Source: Candidatus Taylorbacteria bacterium RIFCSPHIGHO2_02_FULL_43_32b (lineage in GTDB: Bacteria > Patescibacteriota > Minisyncoccia > Phycocordibacterales > 2-02-FULL-43-11). Taken from it: a stretch of 55,695 nt of DNA. Position 1 is the stretch's first letter. Each line of letters starts with the position of its first letter. Both the position numbers and the translations under genes were made by a program. The notes beneath the pieces were generated by a model, which saw only the letters and a list, made by a program, of their open reading frames with translations, was not told the DNA's origin and did not search any database. The stretch is taken from positions 1 through 55,695 of the forward strand of contig MHRK01000047.1 of assembly GCA_001820955.1 (NCBI GenBank), read 5' to 3'. Shown here piece after piece: positions 3,118 to 47,094 of the stretch.

Positions 3118-4524
3118 ATGGTTAACAAGCAAGTAAGTGATATTCCTAATGGGATGGAAAAAATAATCTCGCTTTGCAAAAGGCGGGGATTCATTTACCA
3201 GGGTTCGGAAATCTACGGCGGATTGGCAGGAATGTATGATTTTGGTCCTTATGGGGTTGAGTTACTTAACAAAATAAAAGCTTCATGGTGGAAAGAACAC
3301 GTTTATAACAGGGATAATTATGTAGGGTTGGATTCTGCCATATTTAAAGACCCTAGGGTTTGGGAAGCATCCGGACACACGAAGGGTTTTGCTGATCCGT
3401 TGTCGGAATGCAAGAGATGCAACACCCGCATTCGGGTCGACAAAGAACTGGAGGAAATTGGCGTTGTCGCCGATGAGAAGATGAGTGAAGCAAAGCTTAA
3501 CGAACTCTTTAGTGCAAATAAATCTAAAATAAAATGCCCTCAATGCGGCGCTCGTGATTTTACGGAGGTTAGGGCATTTAACTTGCTGGTAAAATCTAAC
3601 CTGGGCGATTTTACAAGTACGGGTGAGCGTCCGGTTTACCTCCCGGGTGAAGCCTGTCAGGGAATTTATCTCAATTACAAAAATATATTGAATTCAACGC
3701 GCGTAAAAGTTCCATTTGGTGTGGCCCAAATCGGTAAAGCTTTCCGAAACGAAATTTCGCCTCGAAATTTCCTATTTCGGACGCGGGAATTTGAACAAGC
3801 TGATACTCAGTTGTTTATTCGCCCTCACGAGAATAAGGAGGCGTATGAGCGGATGAAAAAAGAAAGATGGGATTGGTACCTTAGTCTGGGTATACGGGCA
3901 GAAAATCTGAAATGGAAACAGCACGAAAATTTGGTGTTTTATGCCTCCGATGCTTGGGATATTTTGTACAATTTTCCTACCTACGGATTTGATGAGGTGG
4001 AAGGCATTCACGATCGAACTGATTATGATCTCACTCAACATATGAAGTACTCAGGGGTAGATTTGAGTTATACCGATCCACAAACAAAGGAAAAATTTAT
4101 TCCCTGGATTCTTGAGACATCAATGGGTTTAGGGCGAGTGTTCCTTGCGGTTCTTTCGGACGCCTACACTGAAGATCTGCTAGGGGGGGAGCCGCGTATT
4201 GTACTCAAATTGGCTGGCCATCTTGCTCCGGTAAAAGTAGCGGTTTTCCCTCTTCTTAGAAACAAGCCCGAACTTGTTCAAAAGGCGGAAGAAGTTCATC
4301 GCATGCTGAAAGGAAAAATTGCTGGCCTCGTGGAATTCGACGATAACGGCAACATCGGCAAGCGCTACCGCCGCCAGGACGAGATAGGAACGCCATATTG
4401 CGTGACGATCGATTTCGATTCTTTGGAGAAGGGCGACGTTACGGTACGCGACAGAGATAACGGAAAACAGGATAGGATAAAAATTGATGAGCTCGCCGCT
4501 TTTTTCAAGCAGAAATTCAGTTAG
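3118..4524 (+). CDS. glyQS: Glycine--tRNA ligase (class II, homodimeric GlyQS type)
   Basis: Contains MEKIISLCKRRGFIYQGSEIYGGLAGMYDFGPYGVELLNKIK..., FRNEISPRNFLFRTREFEQ (class II motif 2-like) and an anticodon-binding C-terminus. Confidence 0.93.
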   Translation: MVNKQVSDIPNGMEKIISLCKRRGFIYQGSEIYGGLAGMYDFGPYGVELLNKIKASWWKEHVYNRDNYVGLDSAIFKDPRVWEASGHTKGFADPLSECKRCNTRIRVDKELEEIGVVADEKMSEAKLNELFSANKSKIKCPQCGARDFTEVRAFNLLVKSNLGDFTSTGERPVYLPGEACQGIYLNYKNILNSTRVKVPFGVAQIGKAFRNEISPRNFLFRTREFEQADTQLFIRPHENKEAYERMKKERWDWYLSLGIRAENLKWKQHENLVFYASDAWDILYNFPTYGFDEVEGIHDRTDYDLTQHMKYSGVDLSYTDPQTKEKFIPWILETSMGLGRVFLAVLSDAYTEDLLGGEPRIVLKLAGHLAPVKVAVFPLLRNKPELVQKAEEVHRMLKGKIAGLVEFDDNGNIGKRYRRQDEIGTPYCVTIDFDSLEKGDVTVRDRDNGKQDRIKIDELAAFFKQKFS

Positions 4525-4529
4525 AGCCT

Positions 4530-4700
4530 GTTCACAATCTAATGCCCAGGCCAAACTTTAAAATTTCGAGCGAAAATTTCACAATTCGACGAGGCATATC
4601 GAGATATGTCGAGGAGAAGTGGGTAATTTGCAGCCGAAATTTTAAAGTTTGGGCGGGCAAGCGATGTGTTTCAGCATACTCTTGCGGTTAGATTGTGAGC
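4530..4700. repeat. Large imperfect palindromic element E1 with conserved 26-nt core
   Basis: Outer arms are gttcacaatctaa / ttagattgtgagc and inner arms are ccaaactttaaaatttcg / cgaaattttaaagtttgg. The core cgaggcatatcgagatatgtcgagga (4590-4615) recurs as its reverse complement at 32378-32403. Confidence 0.65.
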
Positions 4701-4752
4701 AGTCTCTCAGATTCCATTTTTAGGTGTTTTGCGCTAGTCTTTGGACTAGCTT

Positions 4753-4980
4753 ATGAACAGCGTTCATTGTTGGGAAATGCGTGGAGATTTTGAATTCAAA
4801 CTGGACCACTCCATTTTCTATTTCAGTGCTGTGCGTGTTCGCAAACCTTTTAGCGCTGAAGTGTTCAGGATATACAAGCAGGGGAACGACGCCACAGAGT
4901 CTAACTTATGCGATATGACTTTCAAAATGGATGATGTCCTTGAGATTAGATACGATGGCAATCGAGTTTGGCCAGTTTAG
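4753..4980 (+). CDS. Hypothetical small protein (75 aa)
   Basis: ORF-track ORF followed by the hairpin accaagg..ccttggtttttt (4982-5008). No recognisable motif. Confidence 0.35.
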   Translation: MNSVHCWEMRGDFEFKLDHSIFYFSAVRVRKPFSAEVFRIYKQGNDATESNLCDMTFKMDDVLEIRYDGNRVWPV

Positions 4981-4981
4981 A

Positions 4982-5008
4982 CGACCAAGGTGATTCCTTG
5001 GTTTTTTG
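4982..5008 (+). terminator. Intrinsic terminator-like hairpin
   Basis: Stem accaagg-tgatt-ccttggt followed by a T-run. Confidence 0.5.
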
Positions 5009-5171
5009 TTGGTGGGAAGTCTTTTAATTGGTGCTAAATGTTTACAGGCATCTGTAATGCCAAATTTTGTTGACAAGTATGGCTAATTATGCTACTCTTG
5101 TTAGAGCAAGATACCCTTGCGACTGATTCGGCAGATTTCCGAAAGCACATTTAGTAAAGAAAGGAAAAACG

Positions 5172-5870
5172 ATGAACACTGTCATCGACGCAGGATCGGC
5201 CAAATTGGCTGGCTTGCAAATCGACACCCTCTCGAAATATCGGGCGGGTCAGCTCACTCTCGATCAATGGGAGCGGTTCAACAACCTCTCTCCGGATGAT
5301 CGGGAAGCACGTTTCGGCGATTGGAAGAAGCCGGAGCCCCGACGCCAAGAGGCGCCTGCGGAACCCACCGAAAAGTTCGCTCTGCTCGTGGACCTCGGCA
5401 TCATTACGGTGCCCGATGATTACGTGCACGACAAGCGGCTCACGAAGTTCGGTAAGCAGAACCGCAAAAAGTTCTATTACTACAGCGACGAGATCACCGA
5501 CAAGAACTTCCCGAATCCGACTCGGGTCCTGAAGCCTGGCGACAAGCTCCGCGTTCGCGCGTTCAAGCAAATCGTCCCCGGCACGACCACCTCGGAAGAG
5601 CGTATGGCGTTCTTGGCAACGGAAAAGGCCATCCACACCGGCGCACAAGGTGCGTCCCTCGTCTTTGATCAGAAGCGCGATCAACTGCCGAAAGGTAAGT
5701 GGTATACTTCCTTCGATGAAAAGGATCGTCTCTGGGCAGATGCCGACGGCTACCACGAGGTGCCGCTCGTGCTCTGCTACTCGGGCGGTGGCTTCCAGTT
5801 TCCCCTTGGCGTCTTCGAGAATGTCTGGGACGACGGCTATGCCTTCCTCTGCTTCTGCGACGTCGAGTAG
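5172..5870 (+). CDS. DGR variable (target) protein with a C-terminal VR
   Basis: 232-aa ORF, visibly GC-richer than its flanks. The last ~41 codons (ADGYHEVPLVLCYSGGGFQFPLGVFENVWDDGYAFLCFCD) align with the TR. An AGGA-type RBS lies upstream. Confidence 0.85.
   Translation: MNTVIDAGSAKLAGLQIDTLSKYRAGQLTLDQWERFNNLSPDDREARFGDWKKPEPRRQEAPAEPTEKFALLVDLGIITVPDDYVHDKRLTKFGKQNRKKFYYYSDEITDKNFPNPTRVLKPGDKLRVRAFKQIVPGTTTSEERMAFLATEKAIHTGAQGASLVFDQKRDQLPKGKWYTSFDEKDRLWADADGYHEVPLVLCYSGGGFQFPLGVFENVWDDGYAFLCFCDVE
5740..5861 (+). repeat. DGR variable region (VR)
   Basis: Ungapped match to 6234-6355. I count 19 mismatches: 18 opposite TR adenines and one C/T (6295 vs 5801). Confidence 0.9.
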
Positions 5871-5920
5871 CCCTTGGAAACTTGGGCACTCAGTTTGTTC
5901 TTCGGGTCCTTAGACCCTTT

Positions 5921-5955
5921 GAGCCCTTGCTTCACCGCGAGGGCTCAATTTTTTT
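5921..5955 (+). terminator. Intrinsic terminator after the DGR target gene
   Basis: Stem gagccct-tgcttcaccgcg-agggctc followed by aattttttt. A smaller hairpin gggtc-ctta-gaccc lies at 5904-5917. Confidence 0.6.
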
Positions 5956-6233
5956 ATATAAATTTTGTATAATATTGTCCGGAACCTAGATAGCGCATGC
6001 GGCCACGGTTTCATGCCATCGAATTCTCGTTTAAGGAATCAGCGAGCGGTCCGTCGGGTAACCCAGTAGGTCATTCTGCTGAATGAGCTTTACGGACGAG
6101 TGCTACCTTTCATGAAAAAATCAAATAAGTCGGTGCGATGTGCCAGCGAGTATAAGACTCGGAATAAAATTCAAAGGGGAGCTGGTGCTCTTCTTGGTGA
6201 GATAGACGGCGCGTCGTACATTGCTGATGAGGT

Positions 6234-6355
6234 ATGCCGACGGCAACCACAAGGTGCCGAACGTGAACTGCAACTCGGACGGTGACTTCAAGTTCAACCT
6301 TGGCAACTTCGAGAATGTCTGGAACGACGACAATGCCTTCCTCTGCTTCTGCAAC
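6234..6355 (+). repeat. DGR template repeat (TR)
   Basis: In the VR-equivalent frame it has 8 AAC codons, and all 8 are altered in the VR. It is non-coding in context (the ORF-track ORF 6221..6466 just reads through it). Confidence 0.9.
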
Positions 6356-6366
6356 TCAAATGATTT

Positions 6367-6389
6367 CTCCCACTACTTGTTAGTGGGAG
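6367..6389. terminator. 9-bp hairpin straddling the Avd stop codon, 12 nt after the TR
   Basis: Stem ctcccacta-cttgt-tagtgggag followed by ttttg on the + strand. Possibly a bidirectional terminator or a structured part of the TR RNA 3' region. Confidence 0.45.
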
Positions 6390-6714
6390 TTTTGTCTCCA
6401 AGGTTTTTCTTCCATCCACCAAGCATGCGCCCGACCTCATCCAATAGTAAAATGAGAGCACCGTAACTTTTATGGTCAATGACTTTATGTTCCCAGCTTA
6501 ACTGTAGAAAGAATTTGAGAAGATCAGCTTTTGCGATAGCCTGGGATACCAGGGATAGTTTCTCGAATTTGTCATAGGCAAAACAACCTCTGAATATCAG
6601 TTCGAGAAGTGAGAGGAAAATATCATCAACTTTTGCACCGATCGTATAGCGATCGACACGTTTTAAATTTGCGATTGAGCTATGCCACGCTTGATAAGCT
6701 TCTTTCGCACGCAC
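6373..6714 (-). CDS. avd: Avd-like accessory protein (four-helix-bundle / '23S rRNA intervening sequence protein' family)
   Basis: 113 aa, all-helical. ...IANLKRVDRYTIGAKVDDIFLSLLELIFRG...ALILLLDEVGRMLGGWKKNL resembles this family, which includes the Bordetella phage Avd. Confidence 0.75.
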   Translation of the reverse strand: MRAKEAYQAWHSSIANLKRVDRYTIGAKVDDIFLSLLELIFRGCFAYDKFEKLSLVSQAIAKADLLKFFLQLSWEHKVIDHKSYGALILLLDEVGRMLGGWKKNLGDKTPTNK

Positions 6715-6735
6715 AAGAACAAGCGGGATTGTTGC

Positions 6736-6746
6736 GGGGGGGGGGG
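6736..6746. repeat. G11 homopolymer tract between the divergent Avd-like and RT genes
   Basis: The run gttgc-ggggggggggg-tgac was counted directly from the sequence. Confidence 0.9.
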
Positions 6747-6772
6747 TGACTTACTGGTTTATTCTGCTCGTC

Positions 6773-7759
6773 ATGTTTACTCATACATACAATTCTATCA
6801 TTACGATTGAAAATTTACTCCTGACGTGGGAAAGGTTTTTGCGCGGCAAAAAGCACAAAAAGGATGTAATTAAATTTCAGGCCGAGCTGGCAACAAATAT
6901 AGCCAGCCTTTATGCAGACCTCAAAAACAAAACCTACATTCACGGTCCATATTCAGCGTTCAATATTTCTGATCCAAAGCCTCGCAACATCCACAAAGCA
7001 ACAGTGCGCGATAGAGTGTTGCATCATTTGATTTACAAAGAATTATATTGGCATTTTCATACTAGGTTTATTTATGATTCTTACTCATGCCGAAAGCATA
7101 AGGGAACGCACAAAGCCCTCGATCGTTTCAAGGACTTTGCTCGCAAGGTATCAAAGAATCATACGCGCACATGTTTTGTACTCAAGTGCGATATTAAAAA
7201 GTTTTTTGCGAGTGTTGACCATGCGGTTCTTATAAAAATCCTTGAACGCCATATTGCTGATCCCGATATCCATTGGCTCATAAATCAGGTTATCTCCAGT
7301 TTTCACACAACAGCTCCGGGTGTCGGATTACCGCTTGGTAATCTCACGTCTCAACTTCTCGTGAACGTATACATGCATGAATTTGACATGTACATCAAAC
7401 AGGAATTAAGAGTGAAATATTATTTACGATACGTAGATGATTTTGTGATTATGCATTATGACAAAAAAGTGATCATGGAAGCGTTGCCGAAAGTCCGCGA
7501 TTTTTTGGAAAATCGTCTCAAATTGTCGTTGCATCCGGATAAGGTTTTCATTAAGACGGCGTCTTCGGGCGTCGATTTTCTGGGATGGATTCACTATCCA
7601 AAACATCGAGTTTTGAGAACGGCGACGAAAAAGAGAATGTTGAGAAAGATCACCGCTACTTCTAAGCCAGAGACCGTCGCCTCGTACCTCGGACTTTTAT
7701 CGCACGGTAATTGCTTCAAATTGAGTCAGACGATATCACGTGGTAGACTTGCAAAATGA
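6773..7759 (+). CDS. DGR-type reverse transcriptase
   Basis: PRNIHKATVRDRVLHHLIY, LPLGNLTSQLLVNVYM (the [LIV]GxxxSQ signature of DGR RTs), YLRYVDDFVIM (YxDD) and GVDFLGW. The start is taken at ATG 6773; the ORF track begins at GTG 6746 inside the G-run. Confidence 0.9.
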   Translation: MFTHTYNSIITIENLLLTWERFLRGKKHKKDVIKFQAELATNIASLYADLKNKTYIHGPYSAFNISDPKPRNIHKATVRDRVLHHLIYKELYWHFHTRFIYDSYSCRKHKGTHKALDRFKDFARKVSKNHTRTCFVLKCDIKKFFASVDHAVLIKILERHIADPDIHWLINQVISSFHTTAPGVGLPLGNLTSQLLVNVYMHEFDMYIKQELRVKYYLRYVDDFVIMHYDKKVIMEALPKVRDFLENRLKLSLHPDKVFIKTASSGVDFLGWIHYPKHRVLRTATKKRMLRKITATSKPETVASYLGLLSHGNCFKLSQTISRGRLAK

Positions 7760-9030
7760 ATTTTTCAAAGAAAACTTTGCCAAATGGTCTCCGAATTATC
7801 ACGGTGCCTATGAAAGATAACCCCACTGTCACGGTTTTGGTTTTGGTGGCGGTTGGCTCCAAATATGAGACAAAAGAGATAAACGGTCTTTCTCATTTTT
7901 TGGAACACATGTGTTTTAAAGGTACCAAAAAACGGCCGACAGCACTTCATATTTCGCATGAATTAGACTCTGTCGGGGCTCAATACAATGCTTTTACAGG
8001 GCAGGAATATACGGGTTATTACGCGAAAGCCGCGGCCAAACACGCGCCGCTTCTTGTGGATGTGGTTTCTGATATTTACTTAAACTCAACCCTGCCGGAA
8101 GCCGAAATGGAAAAAGAGAAAGGGGTCATTATCGAGGAAATCAATATGTACAACGACCTTCCTCAGCGAAAAGTTCAGGACATTTTTATGTCCTTGCTTT
8201 ACGGCAATCAGCCGGCGGGGTGGGATATTGCCGGCACAAAAGAGAATGTGTCCAAAATGAAGCGTTCCGATTTTATCGACTACCGCTCAAAATTTTACAC
8301 GGCGCCAGAAACCCTTGTCGTTGTCTCTGGCTCGATAGACGAAAAAGAAATTTTAAAGTTAGTGGAAAAACAATTCCAGTCTTCTTCTCCGAAGAAAGGA
8401 GGAGGGAAGTTGCCCGTAAGCGAAAAACAAGACATGCCCGCTATTTCGAACCAAAAGAAAGAGACCGATCAGACCCATTTTGTTTTGGGGGTCAGGACAT
8501 TCGATGCTTATGCCAAAAAGAATGCGGAATTAAAAGTTTTAACCGGAGTTTTAAGTGGCGGAATGAGTTCTCGTTTGTTTGAGAAGATGCGCAACAAGCT
8601 CGGGATTTGTTACTACGTCAATGCTTCGGAGGATTCGTTTACCGATCACGGATTTTTTTCCGTGTCTGCAGGCGTCAAAAACGAAAGGTTAGTCGAAGCA
8701 ATAAAAGAAATTTTGAAAGAGCTGGCTTCTCTTCGGGACACTTTGGTGCCGGAGAAGGAACTTGCCAAGGTTAAGGATTATCTTGTGGGCGGTATGTATC
8801 TTGGACTCGAGTCGTCGGACTCATTGGCTGAATTTTACGGCTCGCAGGAAATTATCAAAAAACCGCTCAAAAAGCCCGAAGAATTGGCTAAGGAAATCAC
8901 TGAAGTGACGAGCTTACGTATTCGGAATTTGGCTAAAGAGATATTTGTAGACAACAATCTTAACCTGTCATGGATTGGTCCTGAAATGAAGAAGGAGGAC
9001 ATGATCAAAATTCTTTCGTTCGGCAAGTAG
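7756..9030 (+). CDS. M16 (pitrilysin/insulinase) family zinc peptidase
   Basis: HFLEHMCFKGT (HxxEH zinc motif). The ATGA overlap with the RT stop suggests co-transcription. Confidence 0.9.
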   Translation: MNFSKKTLPNGLRIITVPMKDNPTVTVLVLVAVGSKYETKEINGLSHFLEHMCFKGTKKRPTALHISHELDSVGAQYNAFTGQEYTGYYAKAAAKHAPLLVDVVSDIYLNSTLPEAEMEKEKGVIIEEINMYNDLPQRKVQDIFMSLLYGNQPAGWDIAGTKENVSKMKRSDFIDYRSKFYTAPETLVVVSGSIDEKEILKLVEKQFQSSSPKKGGGKLPVSEKQDMPAISNQKKETDQTHFVLGVRTFDAYAKKNAELKVLTGVLSGGMSSRLFEKMRNKLGICYYVNASEDSFTDHGFFSVSAGVKNERLVEAIKEILKELASLRDTLVPEKELAKVKDYLVGGMYLGLESSDSLAEFYGSQEIIKKPLKKPEELAKEITEVTSLRIRNLAKEIFVDNNLNLSWIGPEMKKEDMIKILSFGK

Positions 9031-9088
9031 ACTTTAAGAATAGGCTTCAAGCTTCACAAGCCTCTCTATCCGCGATAGCATATAGGTT

Positions 9089-10186
9089 ATGGCGGAAATG
9101 CATGATCGAGATCTCCATATTACCATTAGCTCCGGCACGATTTTTAAGGCCGTGGTTATTGTCCTTTGCGTTTGGCTTCTTTTTGCGGTTAAGGATGTTG
9201 TTCTTGTTGTTTTGACTTCTATCGTCCTCGCATCTGCCATAGAACCCGTAATAGTTTCCATGAGAAAGTGGCGGATTAAACGCGTGGCCGCTGTCATCAT
9301 CACCTATTTGGTTTTAGCGATAGTTGCTTCAACTGTTGTGTTTTTTTTCATACCGTCTCTTGTTCAAGATACCGCCAGTTTTTTGGGGCAGGTGCCGAAA
9401 TATATCGACACTATTTCTTTGTGGAATCCTCTCCAGGAAGATTTTACGGCTGAAAAGAATACCGCCAAGGTGCTCTCTGAGGGTATTACCGAGGGAACAA
9501 GGGTGGTTGGAACTGGATTTTCACTGACCGGTTTTATGGATAATTTGTCGCAGATTTTCTCAAACGCTTCGGAAGGAGCTCTTAGAGTAGTAAGTCTATT
9601 TTTCGGCGGAATTCTTAGTTTCGTTCTGATTATTGTTTTGTCTTTTTATCTTGCTGTGCAAGAAAATGGGGTTGGGAATTTCTTGGCTGTTATTGTCCCA
9701 AATAAATACGAAAATTATGTGCTCGGTCTTTGGAAGAGAGTGGAAACAAAAATTGGTTATTGGTTCCAGGGTCAGCTTCTCCTTGGTGTGCTTGTTGGGG
9801 TTTTGGTCTACCTCTTTCTGATAGTTTTTGGGGTGCAAAATGCCATAGTCTTGGCTGTGATAGCCGCGTGTTTCGAAATAATTCCGCTCTTCGGCCCCAT
9901 TTTGGCTGCCATACCGGCCATTGCTGTCGGGTACGCGCAGGAGGGTGTGACTCTCGCATTAATTGTTGCCGGCGTTTATTTGATTATCCACCAGTTTGAA
10001 AATCATCTCATATATCCATTGGTTGTAAAAAAGATTGTTGGCGTTCCTCCACTTATCGTAATTGTCGCTTTAATTGTCGGAGGACAGCTCGCCGGATTTT
10101 TAGGCATTTTCCTTTCCGTTCCGATTGCAACTCTTCTTATGGAATGGTTTAACGATTTGGAGAAGAGTAAGCTTAGTAAAGCTTAG
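9089..10186 (+). CDS. AI-2E family transporter (PerM/UPF0118-like permease)
   Basis: 365 aa, multi-TM, with ...FEIIPLFGPILAAIPAI... and ...LSVPIATLLMEW... typical of the family. Confidence 0.8.
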   Translation: MAEMHDRDLHITISSGTIFKAVVIVLCVWLLFAVKDVVLVVLTSIVLASAIEPVIVSMRKWRIKRVAAVIITYLVLAIVASTVVFFFIPSLVQDTASFLGQVPKYIDTISLWNPLQEDFTAEKNTAKVLSEGITEGTRVVGTGFSLTGFMDNLSQIFSNASEGALRVVSLFFGGILSFVLIIVLSFYLAVQENGVGNFLAVIVPNKYENYVLGLWKRVETKIGYWFQGQLLLGVLVGVLVYLFLIVFGVQNAIVLAVIAACFEIIPLFGPILAAIPAIAVGYAQEGVTLALIVAGVYLIIHQFENHLIYPLVVKKIVGVPPLIVIVALIVGGQLAGFLGIFLSVPIATLLMEWFNDLEKSKLSKA

Positions 10187-39251: not shown

Positions 39252-39452
39252 ACGTTCGAACTGCGAGTGGTCGCGGTGCGAACGGTGGTTAAAATATTTC
39301 CTAACAGGAAATAAGAGCATATGGTGGATGCCTTGGCTCGAGAGAGGCGATGAAGGACGTAGCGTGGCTGCGATAAGCTTCGGGGAGGTGCCTAGCAACC
39401 TTTGATCCGGAGATGTCCGAATGGGGAAACCCTGCGGCGTAAAACGCCGTAA

Positions 39453-39644
39453 CCGAAGCATCACATGGAATGTGATGAAAAATGCAAAATGTAAATATCA
39501 AAATTAAAAATGACAGTTAAAAATGTAAAAATGAAAGAAATTGGAAAATGTTTTTGTTTTCAATTTTAAAAATTTGCATTGTCATTTTACACTTTGATTT
39601 TTTAATTTTAAATTTAAAGCATCGCGTTTCGCGCGATGCTTCGG
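39453..39644 (+). other. 23S intervening sequence 1 (helix 9 region), containing a family F1 palindrome
   Basis: Closing stem ccgaagcatc...gatgcttcgg. Modules are catcacatggaatgtgatg, an F1 palindrome, then gcatcgcgtttcgcgcgatgc. Confidence 0.7.
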
Positions 39645-39745
39645 AGCGTACCCTGGGAAGTAAAACATTTCAGTACCAGGAGGAGTAGAAACTAATCAGC
39701 ATTCCGTAAGTAGCGGCGAGCGAAAGCGGAGAAGCCCAAACCCGG

Positions 39746-39906
39746 CCGCATCTCATTGCATTCGATGCGGAATTCTTAATTTTTAAATTTTGTAATTTTT
39801 TAAATAATTTTCTAATTTCTGAATGTTTACACATTTGGTCATTGGGATTTGTTTAGAAATTAAAAATTAGAAATTAGAAATTCCACTCGAGCGTAGCGAG
39901 ATGTGG
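39746..39906 (+). other. 23S intervening sequence 2 (domain I), containing a family F3 element
   Basis: Closing stem ccgcatctc...gagatgtgg. The interior, ~120 nt (aatttttaaat...ttagaaattaaaaattagaaattagaaattcc), is closely similar to 44332-44442. Confidence 0.65.
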
Positions 39907-40221
39907 CAGGGGGTTGTAAGGTAACGGCGTCGGTTTTATATCGAGAAGAGTTACAAAATTGTTTGTTAATTGAATCTGCTGGAAAGCGGAGCCCAAGAAG
40001 GTGATAGCCCTGTAAGTGAAAATAAACAATCTCTTTTGCCGTTATTCTTGAGTACTTCGAGACACGAATAGCTCGGAGGAATCTGCCGGAACTAACCGGT
40101 AAGGCTAAATACTCATCGAGACCGATAGTGAACTAGTACCGCGAGGGAAAGGTGAAAAGCAGTCCGTTGAGGACGATGAAATAGACCTGAAACCATATTG
40201 CTTACAAAGAGTTGTAGCGGG

Positions 40222-40368
40222 CGCATCACATGGGATGTGATGCGGATATGAATTATGAATAAGGAATTATGAATTATGCCGGGAAAATTGCGTAGCAATT
40301 TTCCCCAACCATTATTCATAATTCATACTTCTTAATTCATGCTTGAGCATCGCGTTTCGCGTGATGCG
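40222..40368 (+). other. 23S intervening sequence 3 (helix 25 region), containing a family F2 palindrome
   Basis: gcatcacatgggatgtgatgc, then an F2 palindrome (gaattatgaataaggaattatgaattatg...), then gcatcgcgtttcgcgtgatgc. Confidence 0.7.
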
Positions 40369-40994
40369 TCCGTGGCAGCGTGCCTATTGAAGAATGAGCC
40401 AACGAGTTGATGCATTCGGCGAGGCGAACTCCCGTTAAAGGAGGAAGCCGTAGGGAAACCGAGTGTTAATAGCGCGAATAGTCTAATGCATCAGACCCGA
40501 AGCCAAGTGAGCTTGCCTTGAGCAGGATGAACCCTCGAGAAATCGAGGGGAAGGTCCGAACGCTAGAGCTGTGCAATACTCTGCGATGACTTGAGGTAAG
40601 AAGTGATAAGCTAATCGAACTTGGTAATAGCTGGTTCTCTCCGAAATAGCTTTTGGGCTAGCGTCGAGTGATCCTTTAAGGGGTAGAGCACTGGATGGTC
40701 TGGACAGGTCGAAAGACCGCTAGACCAATCAAACTCCGAATACTTAGAGTTATAACTCGGCAGTTACACCGTGGGGGCGAAGCTTCACTGGTGAAAAGGG
40801 AAACAGCCCGGATCTCCAAATAAGGTCCCTAAATTTATGCTAAGTGCATCACAAGGTGGTGAAATTTCTCAAACAATGAGGATGTCGGCTTAGAAGCAGC
40901 CATCATTCAAAGAAAGCGTAACAGCTCACTCATCGAGAGATTTTGCGCCGAAGATAATCGGGGCTAAGCATAGTACCGAATTTGAGGGCACAGG

Positions 40995-41131
40995 AAGCAT
41001 CACATTGCATGTGATGCGAATTATGCAGTATGAATTATGAATTAAGGTTTTCGGAAAATCGCTTTGCGATTTTCCTCCATAATACATAATTCATTATTCA
41101 TAATTCGGCATCGTGCGTAGCGCGATGCTTC
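40995..41131 (+). other. 23S intervening sequence 4 (helix 45 region), containing a family F2 palindrome
   Basis: Closing stem gaagcatc...gatgcttc. Modules are catcacattgcatgtgatg, an F2 palindrome, then gcatcgtgcgtagcgcgatgc. Confidence 0.7.
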
Positions 41132-41673
41132 TCGTGCGGTAGGAGAGTTTTCGCATCTGCTGTGAAGGTGAAGGGGTGACCCACACTGGAGCGTTGCGAA
41201 GTAAGAATGTTGGCACAAGTAACCACATTAGGGGTGAGAAACCCCTACGCCGAAATACCAAGGTTTCCTTGGCAATGATTGTCAGCCAAGGGTTAGTCGG
41301 TCCTAAGGGAATGGCGAAAGCCGCACCCGATGGATATACGGTTAATATTCCGTAACTTTCGTGCGAAACGATGAGATGACGAAGTGTAGTATGCTCTGCG
41401 CATTATTGGATTTGACGTTTGACGCGTCAGGACGGCTTTTAGGTAAGTCCGGGAGCCTGCCTTTAATGGCGATTCCAAACGCGGCAAGAATCCCAAGGGC
41501 AACCGAGGGAAATAGGGCAAAGCACGCTTCCGAGAAAAGTCTCTAAGTTTATTCGCATGAAATCCGTACCGCAAACCGACACAGGTGGTAACGTCGAGAA
41601 GACGAAGGCGAACGAGTGAAGGTTCTCCAAGGAACTCGGCAAAAAATCAGCCGTAACTTCGGAATAAGGCTTT

Positions 41674-41985
41674 CCAGCACCACTTTTTGGTTTTAAAATA
41701 TAGTTGTGTATTACGTCTATTTACAAAAACACACTGTAACCAAAGAGATTTATATTGGTAAAACAAATAATCTCAAGCGACGTTTGAGCGAACATAATAA
41801 CGGTGAACAAAAATCTACACATCGGAAAGATGGCGAATGGAAATTTGTTTATCTGGAGGTATATCGCTCAAAAAAAGATGCAGATGATCGTGAGATGAAG
41901 CTTAAGCATCACGGTCGTGCGAAACAAGAGCTATATAAAAGAATCAGCTCGTCGCTTGAAGATTAAAACCAAAAAGTGGTGCTGG
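41674..41985 (+). other. Stem-bounded 23S insertion (helix 63 region) carrying a GIY-YIG ORF
   Basis: A perfect 22-bp closing stem ccagcaccactttttggtttta / taaaaccaaaaagtggtgctgg encloses ORF 41706..41966. Confidence 0.7.
41706..41966 (+). CDS. GIY-YIG domain nuclease (small YhbQ/UPF0213-like)
   Basis: GTG start. YYVYLQKHTVTKEIYIGKTNNLKRRLSEHNNG...WKFVYLEVYRSKKDADDREMKLK. Confidence 0.75.
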   Translation: MYYVYLQKHTVTKEIYIGKTNNLKRRLSEHNNGEQKSTHRKDGEWKFVYLEVYRSKKDADDREMKLKHHGRAKQELYKRISSSLED

Positions 41986-42103
41986 ATGCAACGAAAGACT
42001 GCTTGGCAACTGTTTATCAAAAACACAGCTCCCTGCGAACTCGTAAGAGGATGTATAGGGGGTGACACTTGACCAATGCCAGAAGGTCAAACGACGGCGT
42101 TGC

Positions 42104-42250
42104 GTGCATCACATGGAATGTGATGCGGGATGAATTATGAATAAAGAATTATGAATTATGGAGGAAAATCGCAAAGCGATTTTCCGAAAACCCTAATTAC
42201 TAATTCATACTACATAATTTAATTCTCACATCGCGCTTCGCGTGATGCAC
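42104..42250 (+). other. 23S intervening sequence 5 (domain IV), containing a family F2 palindrome
   Basis: Closing stem gtgcatc...gatgcac. Modules are catcacatggaatgtgatg, an F2 palindrome, then catcgcgcttcgcgtgatg. Confidence 0.65.
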
Positions 42251-42319
42251 GTGGTGACTGTCGTAAGCCCTGGTGAATGTCGGCCTTAACTATAAGGGTC
42301 CTAAGGTAGCGCAATTCCT

Positions 42320-43381
42320 AAAAGACTGGGACCATCCAAAAGGGATGGAAAACTTGGCTGTATGCGGGAAACTCCGGTAGTATCTCGAGACTACTTTGTC
42401 GGGTATAATATGCCGATGAGTAAAAATGTTTCGAGTGGCTCCGATTTATGTCGGAGGCCGGACAATCCGCAGGAAACGTATGAAGTTAGTAATTTCTATT
42501 ATTCAGGATTCTTTGCAGCAGAAATGTCCTGTTCGATCATTAAAGCAACAAATCATCATCCAAAAGGCTATTACTATGCCGTTGATATAACGGTGTCGAA
42601 TGCGGATGTAAAGTTGCTGAAGAAGGTGAATCGGGCAGTCATGAAAGGCTCCGGGATTATAAGCCCCGTAAAAGGAGCTTTCAATCTTTCGGCGCGCGGA
42701 AAAGAAAAGGTTCGTATTGTCCTGGATTTTCTTCAGAAGTATCCGATTATTGTTGGCGATCTTGCTAAAAATCGGATAGCGATCTTAAGGAAGGCGCTTG
42801 CGTATCTTGATAATCATCAAGGGCACGTAACGCATGAAGAAAAAACAAAAATCATGGATACAATGCGGCGTAATCTCCGAATGCTAAAAGAAAAAGGAGT
42901 AATTGAAAAATCATTTGACGTCGAACCGGTGAATACTGATGCTGTTGGCTATTTCCTTTCAGGAGTAGCGGATGGTGAGGGTTCATTTGGGTCTAAAATG
43001 TCCGGTGATCGTAAGGAACCGTATTTTTTTGTCGCGATGAAAGATCAGAAAATTATTGATCTGTTCCGAAAATTTATAAATTACGGAAATGTTCGGGGGC
43101 GAAAAGATAAAGTGTTCCATTGCGAAATAAATAAACGGGATAAGCTAAAAGAAATTTGTACCTTATTTCTTTTGCGATATCCTTTGCATAACGCGCGACA
43201 AAAGGCGCGGTTGCGAGAACTTCAGCGGATCCTCAACGACTATACGCCAAGCCCCGCAATGGCGGGGATGATATAGTCTGAACTGCATGGCGACATGCAG
43301 AGTTCGGCTCGCGTCGAACCGCTTCGATTAATTTTAATCGGAGTCAAAATCTTGCACCCGCAAGGTTTCAGTAACAGAGTG
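42320..43381 (+). mobile_element. Group I intron with a LAGLIDADG ORF, inserted in ..GCGAAAUUCCU|UGUCGGGUAAG.. (about E. coli 1943)
   Basis: The 5' exon ends in U (42319) and the intron ends in G (43381). An S-element-like gatatagtc lies at 43269-43277, and the exon sequence is restored on removal. Confidence 0.8.
42362..43276 (+). CDS. Double-motif LAGLIDADG homing endonuclease
   Basis: Motifs YYSGFFAAEMSCSI and VGYFLSGVADGEGSFG. The start is uncertain (the internal ATG 42410 is possible). Confidence 0.85.
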   Translation: MRETPVVSRDYFVGYNMPMSKNVSSGSDLCRRPDNPQETYEVSNFYYSGFFAAEMSCSIIKATNHHPKGYYYAVDITVSNADVKLLKKVNRAVMKGSGIISPVKGAFNLSARGKEKVRIVLDFLQKYPIIVGDLAKNRIAILRKALAYLDNHQGHVTHEEKTKIMDTMRRNLRMLKEKGVIEKSFDVEPVNTDAVGYFLSGVADGEGSFGSKMSGDRKEPYFFVAMKDQKIIDLFRKFINYGNVRGRKDKVFHCEINKRDKLKEICTLFLLRYPLHNARQKARLRELQRILNDYTPSPAMAGMI

Positions 43382-43698
43382 TGTCGGGTAAGTTCCGACG
43401 CGTTGAATAGTGTCATGTCTGAGCAACTGTCTCGGAGAACAGCTCGGTGAAAATACAGTACCGGTGAAGATGCCGGTTACCTGCAGCTAGACGAAAAGAC
43501 CCTGGAAGCTTTACTACAACTTGGTATTGAGTATATGTTTTTTATGCGTAGCGTAGACGTTAGGCTTTGAAGTGTCCCTTTCGGGGGGCATGGAGCCGCC
43601 AATGAAACAGCGTTCTTAAAAAATATATATTCTAACCTGTGCGGCAAAAACGTACGGGAACAGTATCTGGCGGGTAGTTTTGGTGGGGCGCTATCCTT

Positions 43699-44657
43699 GA
43701 GAACGTGAATTTTTTCGTGTTCTCAAACTATGGCGCCTCCGGCAAGGTTAATCTCTTGCGAAAAAAATAAAGTTAGAGGGCGTCATAAATTCAAAATGCA
43801 AAAATCAAAATGAAAAATGACCCCAGTAGCAGAGCAAATCTCGCTACGGGGCAGGCAATTGCAAAATGAAAAAATGACGGGTAAATCAGCGATATGCTGG
43901 GAAATCTGGTGTATCCGCAGCTACTTGGTGTACAATAGGAATGTTATAAATATCTAAATTTTTAATAACATGTCCGAAGAAATGCCAAGTGAAAATGCTA
44001 GCGGTGCAGAAAACCAGCAGGAATCTACTAACGAGCTTATTGAACGGTTTAGAAACCAACCAATTGAACAATATAAAATCGAGTTAATCAGAAAAGCCGA
44101 TGTAATTGAAAATAGGATTAGACATGTTAAAGACCTAATTCAAGAGTACGACGGAACTCATGGCGATATGAGTAGTATTTTTACGGGTCGATTGGGTGCA
44201 ATAGGAAGAAAACTTGATGAAATGGAGGAAGCCTTGGACTTTAATTTGAAGTCAGTAGCATTCATGAAAAGTCAGGAAAAGTAGTGGATATTCCTCAGAG
44301 ACCACCAGCTGATGCCTGTGAATACAGGAATGATTAATTTTTGAATTTTTCAATTTTTAAATAATGTTTCAATTTCTTAATGTTTAAGACATTGGGTTAT
44401 TGGGGTTTATTTAGAAATTAAAAATTAGAAATTAAGAATTCCGATGTACTCATCGGTTAATGTATGGTCCGAACTCTACCCTTCGATAAGGAGGGCTTGC
44501 CCGACTCAGGGCAAGTAGCGATATAGAGAGACAGGCAGAAATGTCCTGTCTGTAAACAAGATTTGTGCTTTCGTTTGCGCATGTATTCGTAGTCATTCGT
44601 TATGATTCGTATACATTCGTAGATTGGCACTTAATTTTGTTGTACACAACAAAATTG
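43699..44657 (+). mobile_element. 0.96-kb composite insertion in the 23S helix 81 loop region (class unresolved)
   Basis: Flanked by ..ggggcgctatcctt| and |tctaaaaagtaacgaaggag. Contains F1 (43786-43880), F3 (44332-44442) and F4 (44578-44624) repeats and a 104-codon ORF. U at -1 and a terminal G are possible. Confidence 0.6.
43970..44284 (+). CDS. Hypothetical helical/acidic 104-aa protein encoded inside the 23S insertion
   Basis: ORF track only. No nuclease, maturase or RT motif recognised. Confidence 0.35.
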   Translation: MSEEMPSENASGAENQQESTNELIERFRNQPIEQYKIELIRKADVIENRIRHVKDLIQEYDGTHGDMSSIFTGRLGAIGRKLDEMEEALDFNLKSVAFMKSQEK

Positions 44658-44899
44658 TCTAAAAAGTAACGAAGGAGTCTATTAAGGTTCCCTAGGCGCG
44701 AATGGAAACCGTGCCGATAGTGCAATGGCAAAAGGGAGCTTGACTGCGAGGGGGACATCCCAAGCAGGTGCGAAAGCAGAGCATAGTGAACCGATGGCCC
44801 GCGTTAGACGCGGCCAGAGATTATCGGACAAAAGCTACTCCAGGGATAACAGGCTAGTTCCGCCTAAGAGTTCATATCGACGGCGGAGTTCGGCACCTC

Positions 44900-45287
44900 A
44901 AATCGGGGCGCCATACCAGAAATGGTATTAGCTACTTCGACATAACACACAGGAGTGAACCCTGTTATGTTGTTGAAAAATATTGGCTTATAACGGTGGA
45001 ATCCTACGAATAAATTTTTTGCAAAATTTAGGCGAGGACAATCCCGTGGGAACCCAGCACCATTTATCGTAAGACGGTGAATGAAGTGGTGTTGGCGGCA
45101 GTGCTATTTATGTGACTATTTCCAGAAAGTAAATAAATGGTGCTGGACCCGTAGAGACTTTCTCGATGACCCAAATCGAGACTAGTCCGGAATAAATTTC
45201 CGGGCTAACACGCCAACTCCTCATCCTCCAAAAGAGGGAAGGAAGAAGATATAGTCCATACAATTGGAAACAATTGCTAAAAGATAC
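44900..45287 (+). mobile_element. ORF-less group-I-like intron in ..GGCACCUC|GAUGUCGG.. (about E. coli 2500, peptidyl-transferase centre)
   Basis: aagatatagtcc (S-element-like) at 45247-45258, followed by a caattg-gaaa-caattg hairpin. It shares ggct(t)ataacggtggaatc with the next intron. The canonical U(-1)/terminal-G junction cannot be placed. Confidence 0.65.
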
Positions 45288-45319
45288 GATGTCGGCTTAT
45301 CACATCCCGGGGCTGTAGA

Positions 45320-45353
<34 letters not shown>

Positions 45354-45442
45354 TGCTACATGAGCTGGGTTCAGACCGTCGCGAGACAGGTTGGTCTCCT
45401 ATCTGCTGCAGGCGTTGATTCTTGAGGAGATTCGTTTCTAGT

Positions 45443-45890
45443 AAGTAATTGCTACTTTATGGAGTAATCCATAATGACAATTTGGCTAATAACGGTGGAA
45501 TCTTAAGGTTTTTGGTCTGTTGATAACCATATCGAACACGGTCCGGTGATTATGGTACAATTTACTTGAGGACCAGAAATATTTAAGACAATACCGTGGG
45601 AAGCATTAGGAAATTAAAAATGCAAATATCAAAATCAAAAAATACTGATTAAATTTTGCGAAAGCAAAATTTACAATCTGAATAGAATTTGTCCGCCTTC
45701 GGCGGACGCTTCAATTTTACATTTTGATTTTTAAACTTTACATTTTCTTTTGCCCCGTAACGACTGGAGTCCGCCTTATCGGCGGACGAAGATAGTGGTG
45801 GCGAACGATTTCGCGCCATTATAATATGCCAACGACCAATTAGATTGGTCGAAGATATAGTCTACACACGTAGTGATACGTGAATATGTG
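45443..45890 (+). mobile_element. ORF-less group-I-like intron splitting the sarcin-ricin loop (..CUAGU|ACGAGAGGACC..)
   Basis: The 5' exon ends in U (45442) and the intron ends in G (45890). It has aagatatagtc at 45852-45862 and carries a family F1 palindrome (45611-45746) in a peripheral region. Confidence 0.7.
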
Positions 45891-46130
45891 ACGAGAGGAC
45901 CGAAACGAACTGACCTCTGGTGTACCTGCTGTCGTGCCAACGGCACCGCAGGGCAGCTATGTCGGGAACGGATAACCGCTGAAAGCATCTAAGTGGGAAA
46001 CCGCCTCCAAGATTAGGAATCGTTTAGACCCGTGGAAGACTACCACGTTGATAGGCTTTAGGTGTACGCACAGTAATGTGTTGAGCCGTGAAGTACTAAT
46101 CCGTCGATCTTGTTAGGAAATATTGGAGCC

Positions 46131-46213
46131 ACAGGCTCTAGGTAGTAGAGCTCTAGGCTCTAGGTTGGAAGAAATTCTTTCCTAGCGTCTAGTGCCTAAA
46201 GTCTAGTGCCTAA
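46131..46213. repeat. Family F5 palindromic element flanking the 23S 3' side
   Basis: acaggctctaggtagtagagctctaggctctagg...cctagcgtctagtgcctaaagtctagtgcctaa. Confidence 0.65.
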
Positions 46214-46308
46214 TTTGTCCCGTTGTGTGGAATTGATAGATGTCAGTTCCATTTGTACCTTGATTAAAATGTCCGCCAAAGGCGGATCAGCCGAGGAGGC
46301 TGAAAAAG

Positions 46309-46386
46309 CAGCGTAAAGCGTATAGCGTTTAGTTTGGAAGATTTTCCGGACTTAACGCTGTACGCTATTCGCTAAACGCTTTAAAG
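46309..46386. repeat. Family F6 palindromic element
   Basis: gcagcgtaaagcgtatagcgtttag...cttaacgctgtacgctattcgctaaacgctttaaag. Confidence 0.6.
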
Positions 46387-46395
46387 ATTTTGGAC

Positions 46396-46470
46396 GCGCA
46401 TGTAACTCAGCGGTAGAGTATGGCTTTCGTAAGGCCAGAGTCATTGGTTCAAATCCAATCATGCGCTCCA
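46396..46470 (+). tRNA. tRNA-Thr (anticodon CGU), CCA encoded
   Basis: Manual cloverleaf: gcgcatg/catgcgc acceptor, actc/gagt D stem, tggct-ttCGTaa-ggcca anticodon arm, attgg-ttcaaat-ccaat T arm, discriminator t, cca. Confidence 0.9.
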
Positions 46471-46476
46471 AGCTTT

Positions 46477-46567
46477 CGGAGGGGTGGTGTAATGGGCTCT
46501 GGGCACATTAGTTGTTTCACTTGATGGGTGAGAATTTGTCCAAGTTCAAAACTTGCCCCTCCGCCCA
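46477..46567 (+). ncRNA. 91-nt tRNA-like element (long variable region; anticodon not assignable)
   Basis: Perfect 7-bp acceptor cggaggg/ccctccg, T arm ccaag-ttcaaaa-cttgc and a 3' c-cca. However, position 8 is G, no clean D stem is found, and the best anticodon stem encloses a 9-nt loop (ttgtttcac). Confidence 0.3.
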
Positions 46568-46823
46568 ATTTTCGGGCTCCGTCCCTTCCGCGGGTGCGGA
46601 AACTGAGTGCCCGTAACTAACTGGGGCGCAACTAAGAATTAGAGGACAATCTTTCGTTCTCTTCTAGCTTAGTTGTCGCCCCGGTTAGAATTATGCTAAT
46701 CTCTTTGCATTAAAGGTTTTGTTCCCCAGTACAACAGCAAAGCTGTGTACGGGGCAGGCGGGTGATTTATTTCAGGGACTAAATCACGCAAAATTTTGAC
46801 AATATAATATTTGAACTCAAAGT

Positions 46824-46936
46824 CTCTGGTGCTTTGGCGAGAGGGAAACACCTCTTCCTCCGCCTCCGTAAAGCTTTGGCGGATTGCGATTTGTATCCAA
46901 TCGCTTCGCTTTTGGACAAATCGGGAACATTCCGAC
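46824..46936 (+). pseudogene. 5S-like 5' half carrying a ~70-nt insertion
   Basis: ctctggtgctttggcgagagggaaacacctcttcc [insert] acattccgac, compared with canonical gtctggtgacttgacgcggtggaaacacctcttcccattccgaac. Confidence 0.55.
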
Positions 46937-46985
46937 TTGCCCCGTCAGAAAAATTGAGTATATTGATAATTAGTTCACTTTTTTA

Positions 46986-47094
46986 GTCTGGTGACTTGAC
47001 GCGGTGGAAACACCTCTTCCCATTCCGAACAGAGCAGTTAAGCACCGTAGTACCGATGATACCCTTTGGTGGGAAAAGTAGGTAGTCGCCAGGC
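46986..47094 (+). rRNA. rrf: 5S rRNA (canonical copy)
   Basis: gtctggtgac...ggaaacacctcttcccattccgaacagagcagttaagc...ccgatgat..ggtgggaaaagtaggtagtcgccaggc. Helix I is complementary. Confidence 0.88.

Follow-up and report, generated by a model that had tools for sequence, protein, structure and literature searches.

What is the gene cassette at positions 5172-7759 of this stretch of DNA, and is it still at work? The stretch (hereafter the window) is the whole 55,695 nucleotides of contig MHRK01000047.1, assembly GCA_001820955.1, from Candidatus Taylorbacteria bacterium RIFCSPHIGHO2_02_FULL_43_32b. An initial annotation, made from the letters alone, had read the cassette as a complete diversity-generating retroelement (DGR), and had placed its host, correctly, in the candidate phyla radiation (CPR). 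Our answer, which we hold with high confidence, is that this is a chromosomal, recently active DGR of the CPR type in Candidatus Taylorbacteria. Its parts are a target gene ending in a variable region (VR), a template region (TR), an inverted accessory gene, avd, and a reverse transcriptase (RT) gene, in the arrangement known as B3. The target, the TR and the RT are on the plus strand and avd is on the minus strand, with a 372-nt spacer between target gene and TR.

The evidence begins with the TR/VR pair. The VR (5740-5861, plus strand) makes up the last 41 codons of the target open reading frame (ORF) 5172-5870 and aligns with the TR (6234-6355, plus strand) without gaps over 122 nt, at an offset of 494; beyond either border the similarity is lost. 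Of the 19 mismatches, 18 fall on TR adenines, which are T, G or C in the VR, and the remaining one (C6295/T5801) is synonymous, TTC to TTT. With 32 A in the 122 nt of the TR, a hypergeometric calculation gives P 5.2e-12 for 18 or more of the 19 mismatches lying on A. The TR adenines are distributed by codon position as 12 at the first, 19 at the second and 0 at the third, and all eight AAC codons of the TR, read in the VR frame, are changed (TAC, CTC, CTC, TAC, CCC, GTC, GAC, GAC). The alignment, the mismatch count and the codon list had all been given exactly in the initial annotation. An adenine-tolerant scan of both strands found no further TR-like repeats or VRs in the 55.7-kb window, and no paralogs of the target were found there.

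Could 6234-6355 instead be a degenerate duplicate of the 3' end of the target, beside an unrelated RT of the group II intron or retron kind? A duplication could in principle yield a 122-nt direct repeat at 84% identity, but the mismatches are adenine-specific (P 5e-12) and directional, and between strains it is the repeat copy that is invariant and the gene copy that varies. Furthermore, the RT is DGR-like, an Avd gene lies between it and the repeat, and the arrangement recurs in at least 25 genomes. The adenine bias refutes the pseudogene-duplicate reading, and we give this explanation almost no credence.

The RT itself (6773-7759, plus strand, 328 aa) matches Pfam RVT_1 at 3.5e-26, and its ORF (6746/6773-7759) contains the motifs VRDRVLHH, LPLGNLTSQ and YVDD, so that the DGR-type signatures first read there are indeed present. 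Among all solved structures its best match is 8ub7_A, the bRT of the Bordetella phage BPP-1 (E 5.8e-42, 147.5 bits), as against 57 bits or fewer for RTs of group II or retron type (group II RT E 1.9e-14). In this comparison LPLGNLTSQLLVNVY aligns to IPIGSLTSQLFANVY of bRT and LPLGNLTSQ to IPIGSLTSQ, which gives the DGR-type [I/L]GxxxSQ instead of the group II QGxxxSP. Translation most likely starts at ATG 6773 rather than at GTG 6746, and the form deposited in GenBank has 328 aa. The first four RT codons, ATGTTTACTCAT, overlap the first four avd codons on the other strand. This antisense overlap of the two starts at 6773-6784 (ATGTTTACTCAT against ATGAGTAAACAT) means that the promoter of each gene must lie within the other gene or further away. 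In most relatives both proteins start with M-x-x-H.

Is the element active? Public assemblies of near-identical strains allow a direct comparison. Between the window and one such contig (L085), 22 of 2700 positions differ, and 20 of these are in the VR; 19 of the 20 lie opposite TR adenines and one restores the C of the TR at 5801. There are no differences at all in the TR, in the spacer with its RNA domain (described below), in avd or in the RT. In a second contig (L001), which is 99.1% identical to the window over 10.4 kb, the VR differs at five places, each of them a TR-adenine position. Both contigs have an unchanged TR, a third (L086) has one change in it, and the same adenine-confined pattern is seen in the VRs of more distant strains. 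The signature of mutagenic retrohoming therefore stands, in that the mismatches are adenine-specific and near-identical strains differ almost only in the VR. The expectation that VR polymorphism would be confined to positions opposite TR adenines was borne out with assemblies as a substitute for read mapping. Taken together, these comparisons support the view that the element has recently been active and that unidirectional diversification of the VR is ongoing.

Two further patches of difference separate the window from L001. The first, at 4884-4995, has 35 differences in ~110 nt over the 3' end of the small ORF 4753-4980 and the terminator-like hairpin that belongs to it; the differences are not specific to adenines, and the patch resembles a tract of recombination. 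The second is at 2133-2512, in the gene of a DUF11 protein.

How far does the diversified region extend at its 3' end? An IMH-like boundary (IMH, initiation of mutagenic homing) can be assigned at 5840-5870 (plus strand) on the basis of the IMH and IMH* of BPP-1 (PMC5758913). It consists of a 19-nt A-free stretch (5840-5858), the same in VR and TR, followed by the mismatch G5859/A6353, after which similarity is lost. The VR codon at 5859-5861 is GAC in 18 of 20 relatives and codes for Asp in 19 of 20; the TR codon at 6353-6355 varies among the same 20 as AAC, GAC, CAC or TAC. Because the VR codon is so constant while the TR codon varies, the mismatch at 5859/6353 probably marks the IMH/IMH* boundary and would reflect the difference between IMH and IMH* rather than mutagenesis. 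At this last AAC codon of the TR, a fixed VR and a varying TR are the opposite of usual DGR behaviour. The TR can specify 19 variable codons, or ~1e18 proteins; if the codon of residue 230 is the boundary, 18 diversified codons are left.

What lies between the VR and the TR? Downstream of the VR and its IMH-like boundary are two hairpins (5904-5955, plus strand), picked up by the terminator scan and as inverted repeats: GGGTC-CTTA-GACCC at 5904-5917, and a 12-bp stem (5919-5948) that continues into a T-run up to 5955. Both are conserved, with compensatory changes visible in the alignment of relatives, and the second resembles an intrinsic terminator of the target gene. They are followed by a promoter-like extended -10 box, TGTATAAT (5966-5973, plus strand), which was read from the sequence and was missed by a two-hexamer promoter scan. 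A TATAAT, TATACT, TACAAT or TAAAAT box is aligned at this place, just 5' of the structured RNA, in 20 of 20 cassettes, and we infer that TGTATAAT is the promoter box for an RNA that contains the TR.

From 5978 to 6233 (plus strand) extends a structured 5' domain of this RNA, 255 nt long, with 8 helices and 55 base pairs according to RNAalifold. In the alignment 96.5% of cells are paired and 47 of the 55 pairs show compensatory changes; none of 500 shuffles reaches the observed values, and partners slid by 1-3 columns pair at 35-52%. A near-invariant single-stranded GAAAAAAUCAAAUAAGUCGGUG sits in the middle of the domain. The covariance model built from it (R1) scores 236 bits at the window locus, without a second match in the window, and finds the domain right beside the TR, on its 5' side, in all cassettes of the family, as well as in diverged cassettes that have other target types (L062, L065, L079, L083). 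Elsewhere it occurs only as remnants beside three orphan targets. These partial matches (L017:6787-6931, L023:6798-6958 and L061:6604-6800) stand beside target homologs without an RT or avd in their vicinity, and look like vestiges of lost cassettes. Rfam holds no family for the RNA that flanks the TR, either at the gathering score or at E values up to 10. A structured RNA domain 5' of the TR is thus a well supported, family-wide feature.

Alongside this covariance search, metagenomes were scanned with a pattern for the conserved RNA motif; among the matches listed, 17 of 119 were true cassettes, and the rest were mostly coding sequences and a repeat from metagenome Ga0056123. The latter is an unrelated conserved repeat of ~150 nt, present in ~90 short contigs (within L094-L212) and often at contig ends. 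It matches the motif pattern by chance and looks like a multicopy mobile element.

On the other side of the TR, the 3' flank is short (6356-6393, plus strand). It contains one strand of a closing duplex, an 8-bp hairpin (6367-6389) and UUUU, and overlaps the avd stop codon. The predicted duplex pairs UGAUUU (6361-6366) with AAAUCA (6118-6123), which is part of the GAAAAAAUCAAAUAAGUCGGUG stretch, and would close the TR into a loop. These 3' pairings are also supported by the alignment (93.5% paired, compensatory changes in 7 of 14 pairs, 0 of 500 shuffles). The hairpin is a candidate for both an Avd-binding stem-loop and a terminator. In one near-identical contig (L214) there are four substitutions, at 6351, 6358, 6362 and 6367, and otherwise only T6747G; the four lie close together, from the 3' end of the TR through the pairing partner UGAUUU to the foot of the hairpin.

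The BPP-1 structure offers a guide to what these elements may do. There the RT is wrapped by a 140-nt spacer RNA located 3' of the TR, which pairs with the TR end and, in the so-called cPRT-Stop duplex, with upstream sequence, and which has an Avd-binding stem-loop (bioRxiv 10.1101/2023.10.23.563531). The closing duplex and 3' hairpin described here may be the counterparts of the cPRT-Stop duplex and the Avd-binding stem-loop. The large 5' domain, for its part, may take over the scaffold role of the 3' spacer, a place filled here by antisense avd. Because the survey in the same preprint examined only 40 nt upstream of TRs, a domain of this kind was not visible to it.

Which protein is diversified? 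The target gene (5172-5870, plus strand) encodes 232 aa: a three-helix module at ~1-50, a Pro-rich linker at 52-66 and, with the VR at its end, a C-terminal alpha/beta domain. Searches of Pfam and NCBIfam gave no match, the family profile found only chance matches among PDB sequences, and the protein has no transmembrane segment and no obvious signal peptide. The family is large: a word-indexed search gave 597 homologs (those with a named organism are Patescibacteria), and an exhaustive profile search gave 1252 clusters at the 50% identity level. In a 121-sequence alignment the protein is conserved except for entropy peaks at residues 194, 199, 201, 203, 209, 211, 214, 217, 220 and 223. These are the residues of the AAC/AAT codons of the TR and are dominated by Y, D, S, G, N, R and H.

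The AlphaFold (AF2) model of the target (pLDDT, the predicted local distance difference test, 88.6) shows the same N-terminal three-helix module, disordered Pro-rich linker and C-terminal alpha/beta domain. Its top 24 fold matches in the PDB, and several of the top ones in the viral database BFVD, are C-type lectin domains, all weak (E 0.06-0.6). The C-terminal domain is likely, judging from this model, to be a divergent C-type-lectin-like (CLec-like) fold. The N-terminal module (AKLAGLQID...WE.F, aa 1-50) is common to many CPR proteins with unrelated C-terminal domains; several of those at loci L062-L083 are targets of related DGRs, and one carries DUF5701.

The base composition of the target gene deserves separate comment. 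Its GC content is 58%, against 43% for the window, and its GC content at third codon positions (GC3) is 0.73, against 0.30-0.50 in all 41 other long ORFs, including those for L7/L12, L10, RecA and EF-P. Nearly all relatives (~55) share the excess, with a median GC3 of 0.70, whether or not a DGR is adjacent, while the RT and avd of the same cassettes have a far lower GC3, near the GC of their flanks. The excess is also frequent in other proteins with the same N-terminal module. Stray adenine mutagenesis by the DGR was rejected as its source, because A and T are both depleted at third positions (A3 and T3). Expression-linked codon bias was likewise rejected, the GC3 of L7/L12, L10, RecA and EF-P being 0.50 or less. 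The excess may hint at gene-specific recombination or transfer.

Between TR and RT lies avd (6373-6784). The initial annotation had recognized an Avd-like ORF at 6373-6714, and its domain assignment holds, although the strand is the minus strand. The suggested check against the Avd family gave a match to Pfam PF22296, the four-helix-bundle domain bAvd, at E 6.6e-12 and with 46.3 bits, where the gathering score is 40; the match to NCBIfam DivGenRetAVD (E 1.6e-13) stays under the curated (equivalog) cut-off.

Where does avd translation start? The codons upstream of the annotated GTG (Q/T-I/A-P-L-V-L) are conserved with synonymous wobble, including CTT/TTG, while the annotated first codon itself is GTG, GTA, GTC, GTT, ACG, TCG or ATT across relatives. 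For this reason translation must begin further upstream. A conserved ATG is found at 6784-6782, followed by MSKHDEQNKPVSH, a Pro run and ATIPLVL. The ORF that it opens (M-[S/N/D]-x-H) is free of stops up to the Pro run in 20 of 20 loci, and P-[V/L]-S is conserved immediately ahead of the run. Two other explanations of this region were rejected: 6715-6735 as a small hairpin or promoter, given that its conservation is of the codon type in the avd frame, and reinitiation after an upstream ORF, given that the ATG-frame ORF has no early stop.

The Pro run is encoded by a homopolymer tract at 6736-6746, G11 on the plus strand and C11 in the avd sense, which sets the avd frame and is the longest homopolymer within the 55.7-kb window. 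It is kept as a run of 7-13 nt, or as a (CA)n repeat in one relative (L030), in ~31 of 39 related cassettes. Two replicate assemblies (L002 and L003), compared for variation in the tract, were identical. The length of RT gene calls proved unreliable as a proxy for tract length, a 306-aa call having come from a 13-G variant.

At this point it is useful to collect what weighs against a functioning, CPR-type DGR. With 11 C, the conserved avd ATG of the window is out of frame by one nucleotide, and this copy may therefore make little or no full-length Avd. Two AAG codons of the TR (6251-6253 and 6290-6292) can mutate to TAG stops, and DGR templates usually avoid codons mutable to stops. The Foldseek matches of the target are weak (E 0.06-0.6, template modelling score 0.4-0.46). 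The RT is placed by HMMER scores against solved structures and not by phylogeny, and activity is read from assembly consensus sequences.

Some of this would fit a cassette that is decaying and now inactive; the differences between TR and VR would then be relics of past activity, and the frameshift in avd a first step towards a pseudogene. Most assemblies, like the window, have the start of avd out of frame. In addition, ~60% of target-homolog loci in species-representative genomes have no RT within 6 kb, and three of the orphan loci (L017, L023, L061) keep RNA-domain remnants only, from which it follows that cassettes have been lost repeatedly. Decay of the present copy is, however, hard to reconcile with an intact RT ORF, an invariant TR and RNA domain, and an Avd that is 100% conserved downstream of the tract in L088, L089 and L093, strains ~10% apart in DNA. 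It would also have to accommodate a VR that turned over between strains with 0-2 other substitutions in 2.7 kb, both with 11 G. Finally, the tract is kept across cassettes whose Avd proteins are ~40-95% identical, and decay would not maintain it. We consider decay very improbable, and a recently active DGR remains our preferred reading.

What, then, is the tract for? The simplest reading, to which we would give about an even chance, is that the tract is prone to slippage and so switches the reading frame of Avd. Slips on the C run, made in replication or by RNA polymerase or tRNA-Pro, would shift the frame between ATG 6784-6782 and the Avd domain, and full-length Avd, and with it mutagenic retrohoming, would arise in a subpopulation only, or at a low level. 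Such a contingency switch would extend the explanation of the locus as a recently active DGR, not replace it.

Several observations point this way in addition to the conserved codons, the stop-free ORF and the exceptional length of G11. Among cassettes without a long tract, ~6 of 7 have an upstream Met in the avd frame (L053, L100, L104, L152, L171, L201), while only ~2 of 31 with a 7-13-nt tract or (CA)n have the ATG in frame with Avd (P ~5e-4 for so few in-frame cases), and (CA)n, which replaces the tract in L030, is likewise prone to slippage. Within the 90%-identity cluster to which this Avd belongs are 113-aa calls as well as proteins of 130-140 aa. One of the latter (P0285, with the 136 aa predicted for the in-frame form) is the Avd of the window preceded by MSKHDEQNKPVSHPPPATIPLVL, and its contig (L213) is identical to window positions 3601-9784 (6184 nt) minus one G. 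Across contigs at least 99% identical the tract has 10 (L213), 11 (window, L085, L086) or 12 (L001, L090, L216) nucleotides; avd is in frame with 10 C and out of frame with 11 and 12. Some other near-identical contigs have a T-to-G change adjoining the tract.

Against a switch, it is important to remember that homopolymer lengths in short-read assemblies can be wrong, and that the tract lengths given here come from a comparison between assemblies. The '13 G' variants depend on a T-to-G change beside the run, an error of a kind well known in sequencing. The 113-aa product, moreover, already covers bAvd profile positions 14-106 of 107, and because its codon 1 is GTG in the window, internal initiation could give a functional Avd core. 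A single programmed frameshift does not account for the pattern either, because the shift needed is +1 in some genomes and -1 in others. With these points on both sides, we regard the case for a contingency switch as evenly balanced.

A broader proposal can be formulated, which we advance tentatively and with slightly less assurance than the switch itself. In a large clade of CPR DGRs, the mutagenesis machinery would be gated by a hypermutable repeat, poly-C or (CA)n and mostly out of frame, and Avd would be made only after slippage at the level of DNA, RNA or the ribosome. The same clade would have a rearranged DGR RNA, in which the 255-nt 5' domain replaces the 3' spacer RNA. In the DGR literature that we covered for homopolymers, poly-G, frameshifts or phase variation, a coverage that did not extend to the CPR survey of Paul et al. 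2017, we found nothing relevant.

How does the locus fit into what has been described in CPR bacteria? The initial annotation considered both cassette and target unusual, and here we differ. Wu et al. 2018 (PMC5758913) report the B3 architecture, TR-(avd)-RT with a reverse-strand avd, in 90% of their CPR DGRs, and the coordinates and strands fit it: TR 6234-6355 (plus), avd 6373-6714 (minus) and RT 6773-7759 (plus). Roux et al. 2021 (PMC8144416) describe DGR RT clade 2, which is restricted to Patescibacteria and whose targets usually have no recognizable or transmembrane domain; a target without Pfam match or membrane anchor is thus typical. Given the B3 share and this RT clade, the cassette is of a known kind and its inverted avd is not unusual, and the locus is very probably within the scope of the published CPR DGR surveys. 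The same layout with adenine-specific TR/VR pairs was found in ~25 species-representative Patescibacteria genomes and in at least 17 metagenome contigs, some cassettes having a second target downstream of the RT (L002). The exact proteins are deposited in GenBank as hypothetical proteins of four metagenome-assembled genomes of Candidatus Taylorbacteria (OHA15231-OHA15233 and others). The neighbouring genes are housekeeping genes (glycyl-tRNA synthetase, an M16 peptidase, methionyl-tRNA synthetase and rRNA), and the element is therefore chromosomal.

By homology with the DGR of BPP-1, the cycle may be pictured as follows. A non-coding RNA of ~420 nt would be transcribed from its own promoter, with ends at ~5980 and ~6393, and would comprise the 255-nt 5' domain, the 122-nt TR and a short 3' flank with its hairpin. 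RT and Avd would bind this RNA, prime synthesis and copy the TR into complementary DNA (cDNA), placing random bases opposite adenines. The cDNA would then home to the 3' end of the target and replace the VR at 5740-5861. Up to 18 codons could be re-randomised in this way (~1e17 protein variants), on a C-terminal, probably C-type-lectin-like surface that may bind ligands, and the poly-C tract could regulate how often the cycle runs.

What does this add? As a cassette, little: DGRs are abundant in CPR bacteria and the layout is standard. It is nevertheless a very clean natural example, in that nearly all the differences among public assemblies of one Taylorbacteria population lie in the VR, at adenine-templated positions. 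The possible new content lies in the 5' RNA domain, which is well supported, and in the avd poly-C frame switch, which is plausible. To our knowledge, the cellular control of DGR activity is largely unknown; a tract that decides on Avd production would, if real, be a simple stochastic on/off switch for a DGR. It is the covarying 5' domain that defines the functional DGR RNA in the CPR clade, and it suggests that other arrangements around the template are possible for the RNA scaffold seen in BPP-1 by cryo-electron microscopy, a point that bears on the engineering of DGRs for directed evolution.

One feature elsewhere in the window should be recorded. At 39301-47094 the gene for 23S rRNA contains an interruption: the full model is matched once, over 3104 nt, model positions 2045-2912 are matched a second time at 43456-46107, and a 304-aa ORF (42362-43276) separates the two matches, with a tRNA and 5S rRNA after. 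This is probably the intron- or insertion-bearing rRNA typical of CPR bacteria.

Which known systems does the locus resemble, and where does it depart from them? The closest are the CPR DGRs of the two surveys (B3, PMC5758913; RT clade 2, PMC8144416). They share its gene order and orientation, with avd inverted between TR and RT, its chromosomal location in a groundwater CPR host, a target without recognizable domain, signal peptide or transmembrane segment, a VR at the extreme C-terminus and an AAC-rich TR; in the cassette itself nothing essential differs. In the CPR DGR literature searched (the same two papers) we found no mention of a 255-nt covarying 5' RNA domain, an avd poly-C tract or a GC3 excess of the target.

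The DGR of BPP-1 (mtd-avd-TR-brt; PDB 8ub7) has a homologous RT (E 5.8e-42), an Avd-family protein and the same adenine-specific flow from TR to VR. It also has a GC-rich, identical IMH-like 3' boundary, pairing between the two flanks of the TR, and a stem-loop directly on the 3' side of the TR, features which are predicted for the window here. In contrast to BPP-1, the avd gene of the window runs on the other strand, with an antisense overlap at the start of the RT. The non-template RNA is mostly 5' of the TR (255 nt) instead of forming a 140-nt 3' spacer, only ~38 nt follow the TR before a terminator-like hairpin, and the element is cellular and not phage-borne, with a target that is no tail fibre.

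Variable proteins with the CLec fold (Mtd, TvpA, archaeal AvpA; PMC5006420, PMC6328139) carry the VR in C-terminal strands of their compact alpha/beta domain, where the variable residues alternate along each strand. The modelled target of the window has the same arrangement (199/201/203), and its fold matches, though weak, are of the C-type lectin-like domain (CTLD) type. The target differs in having no sequence match to the CLec, FGE-sulfatase (formylglycine-generating enzyme) or DUF1566 families, and its structural matches, which are below significance, are to animal and viral CTLDs and not to solved DGR variable proteins.

The poly-C tract, finally, invites comparison with the simple sequence repeat contingency loci of Neisseria, Bordetella and Campylobacter (poly-G/C; PMC1891110, PMC2831843). 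In both cases a G/C homopolymer lies near the 5' end of a coding sequence, its length decides the frame, and length polymorphism occurs among otherwise identical sequences, here at the level of assemblies. What sets the present locus apart is its CPR host and the nature of the gene that would be gated, which is not a surface antigen but an accessory factor of targeted hypermutation.

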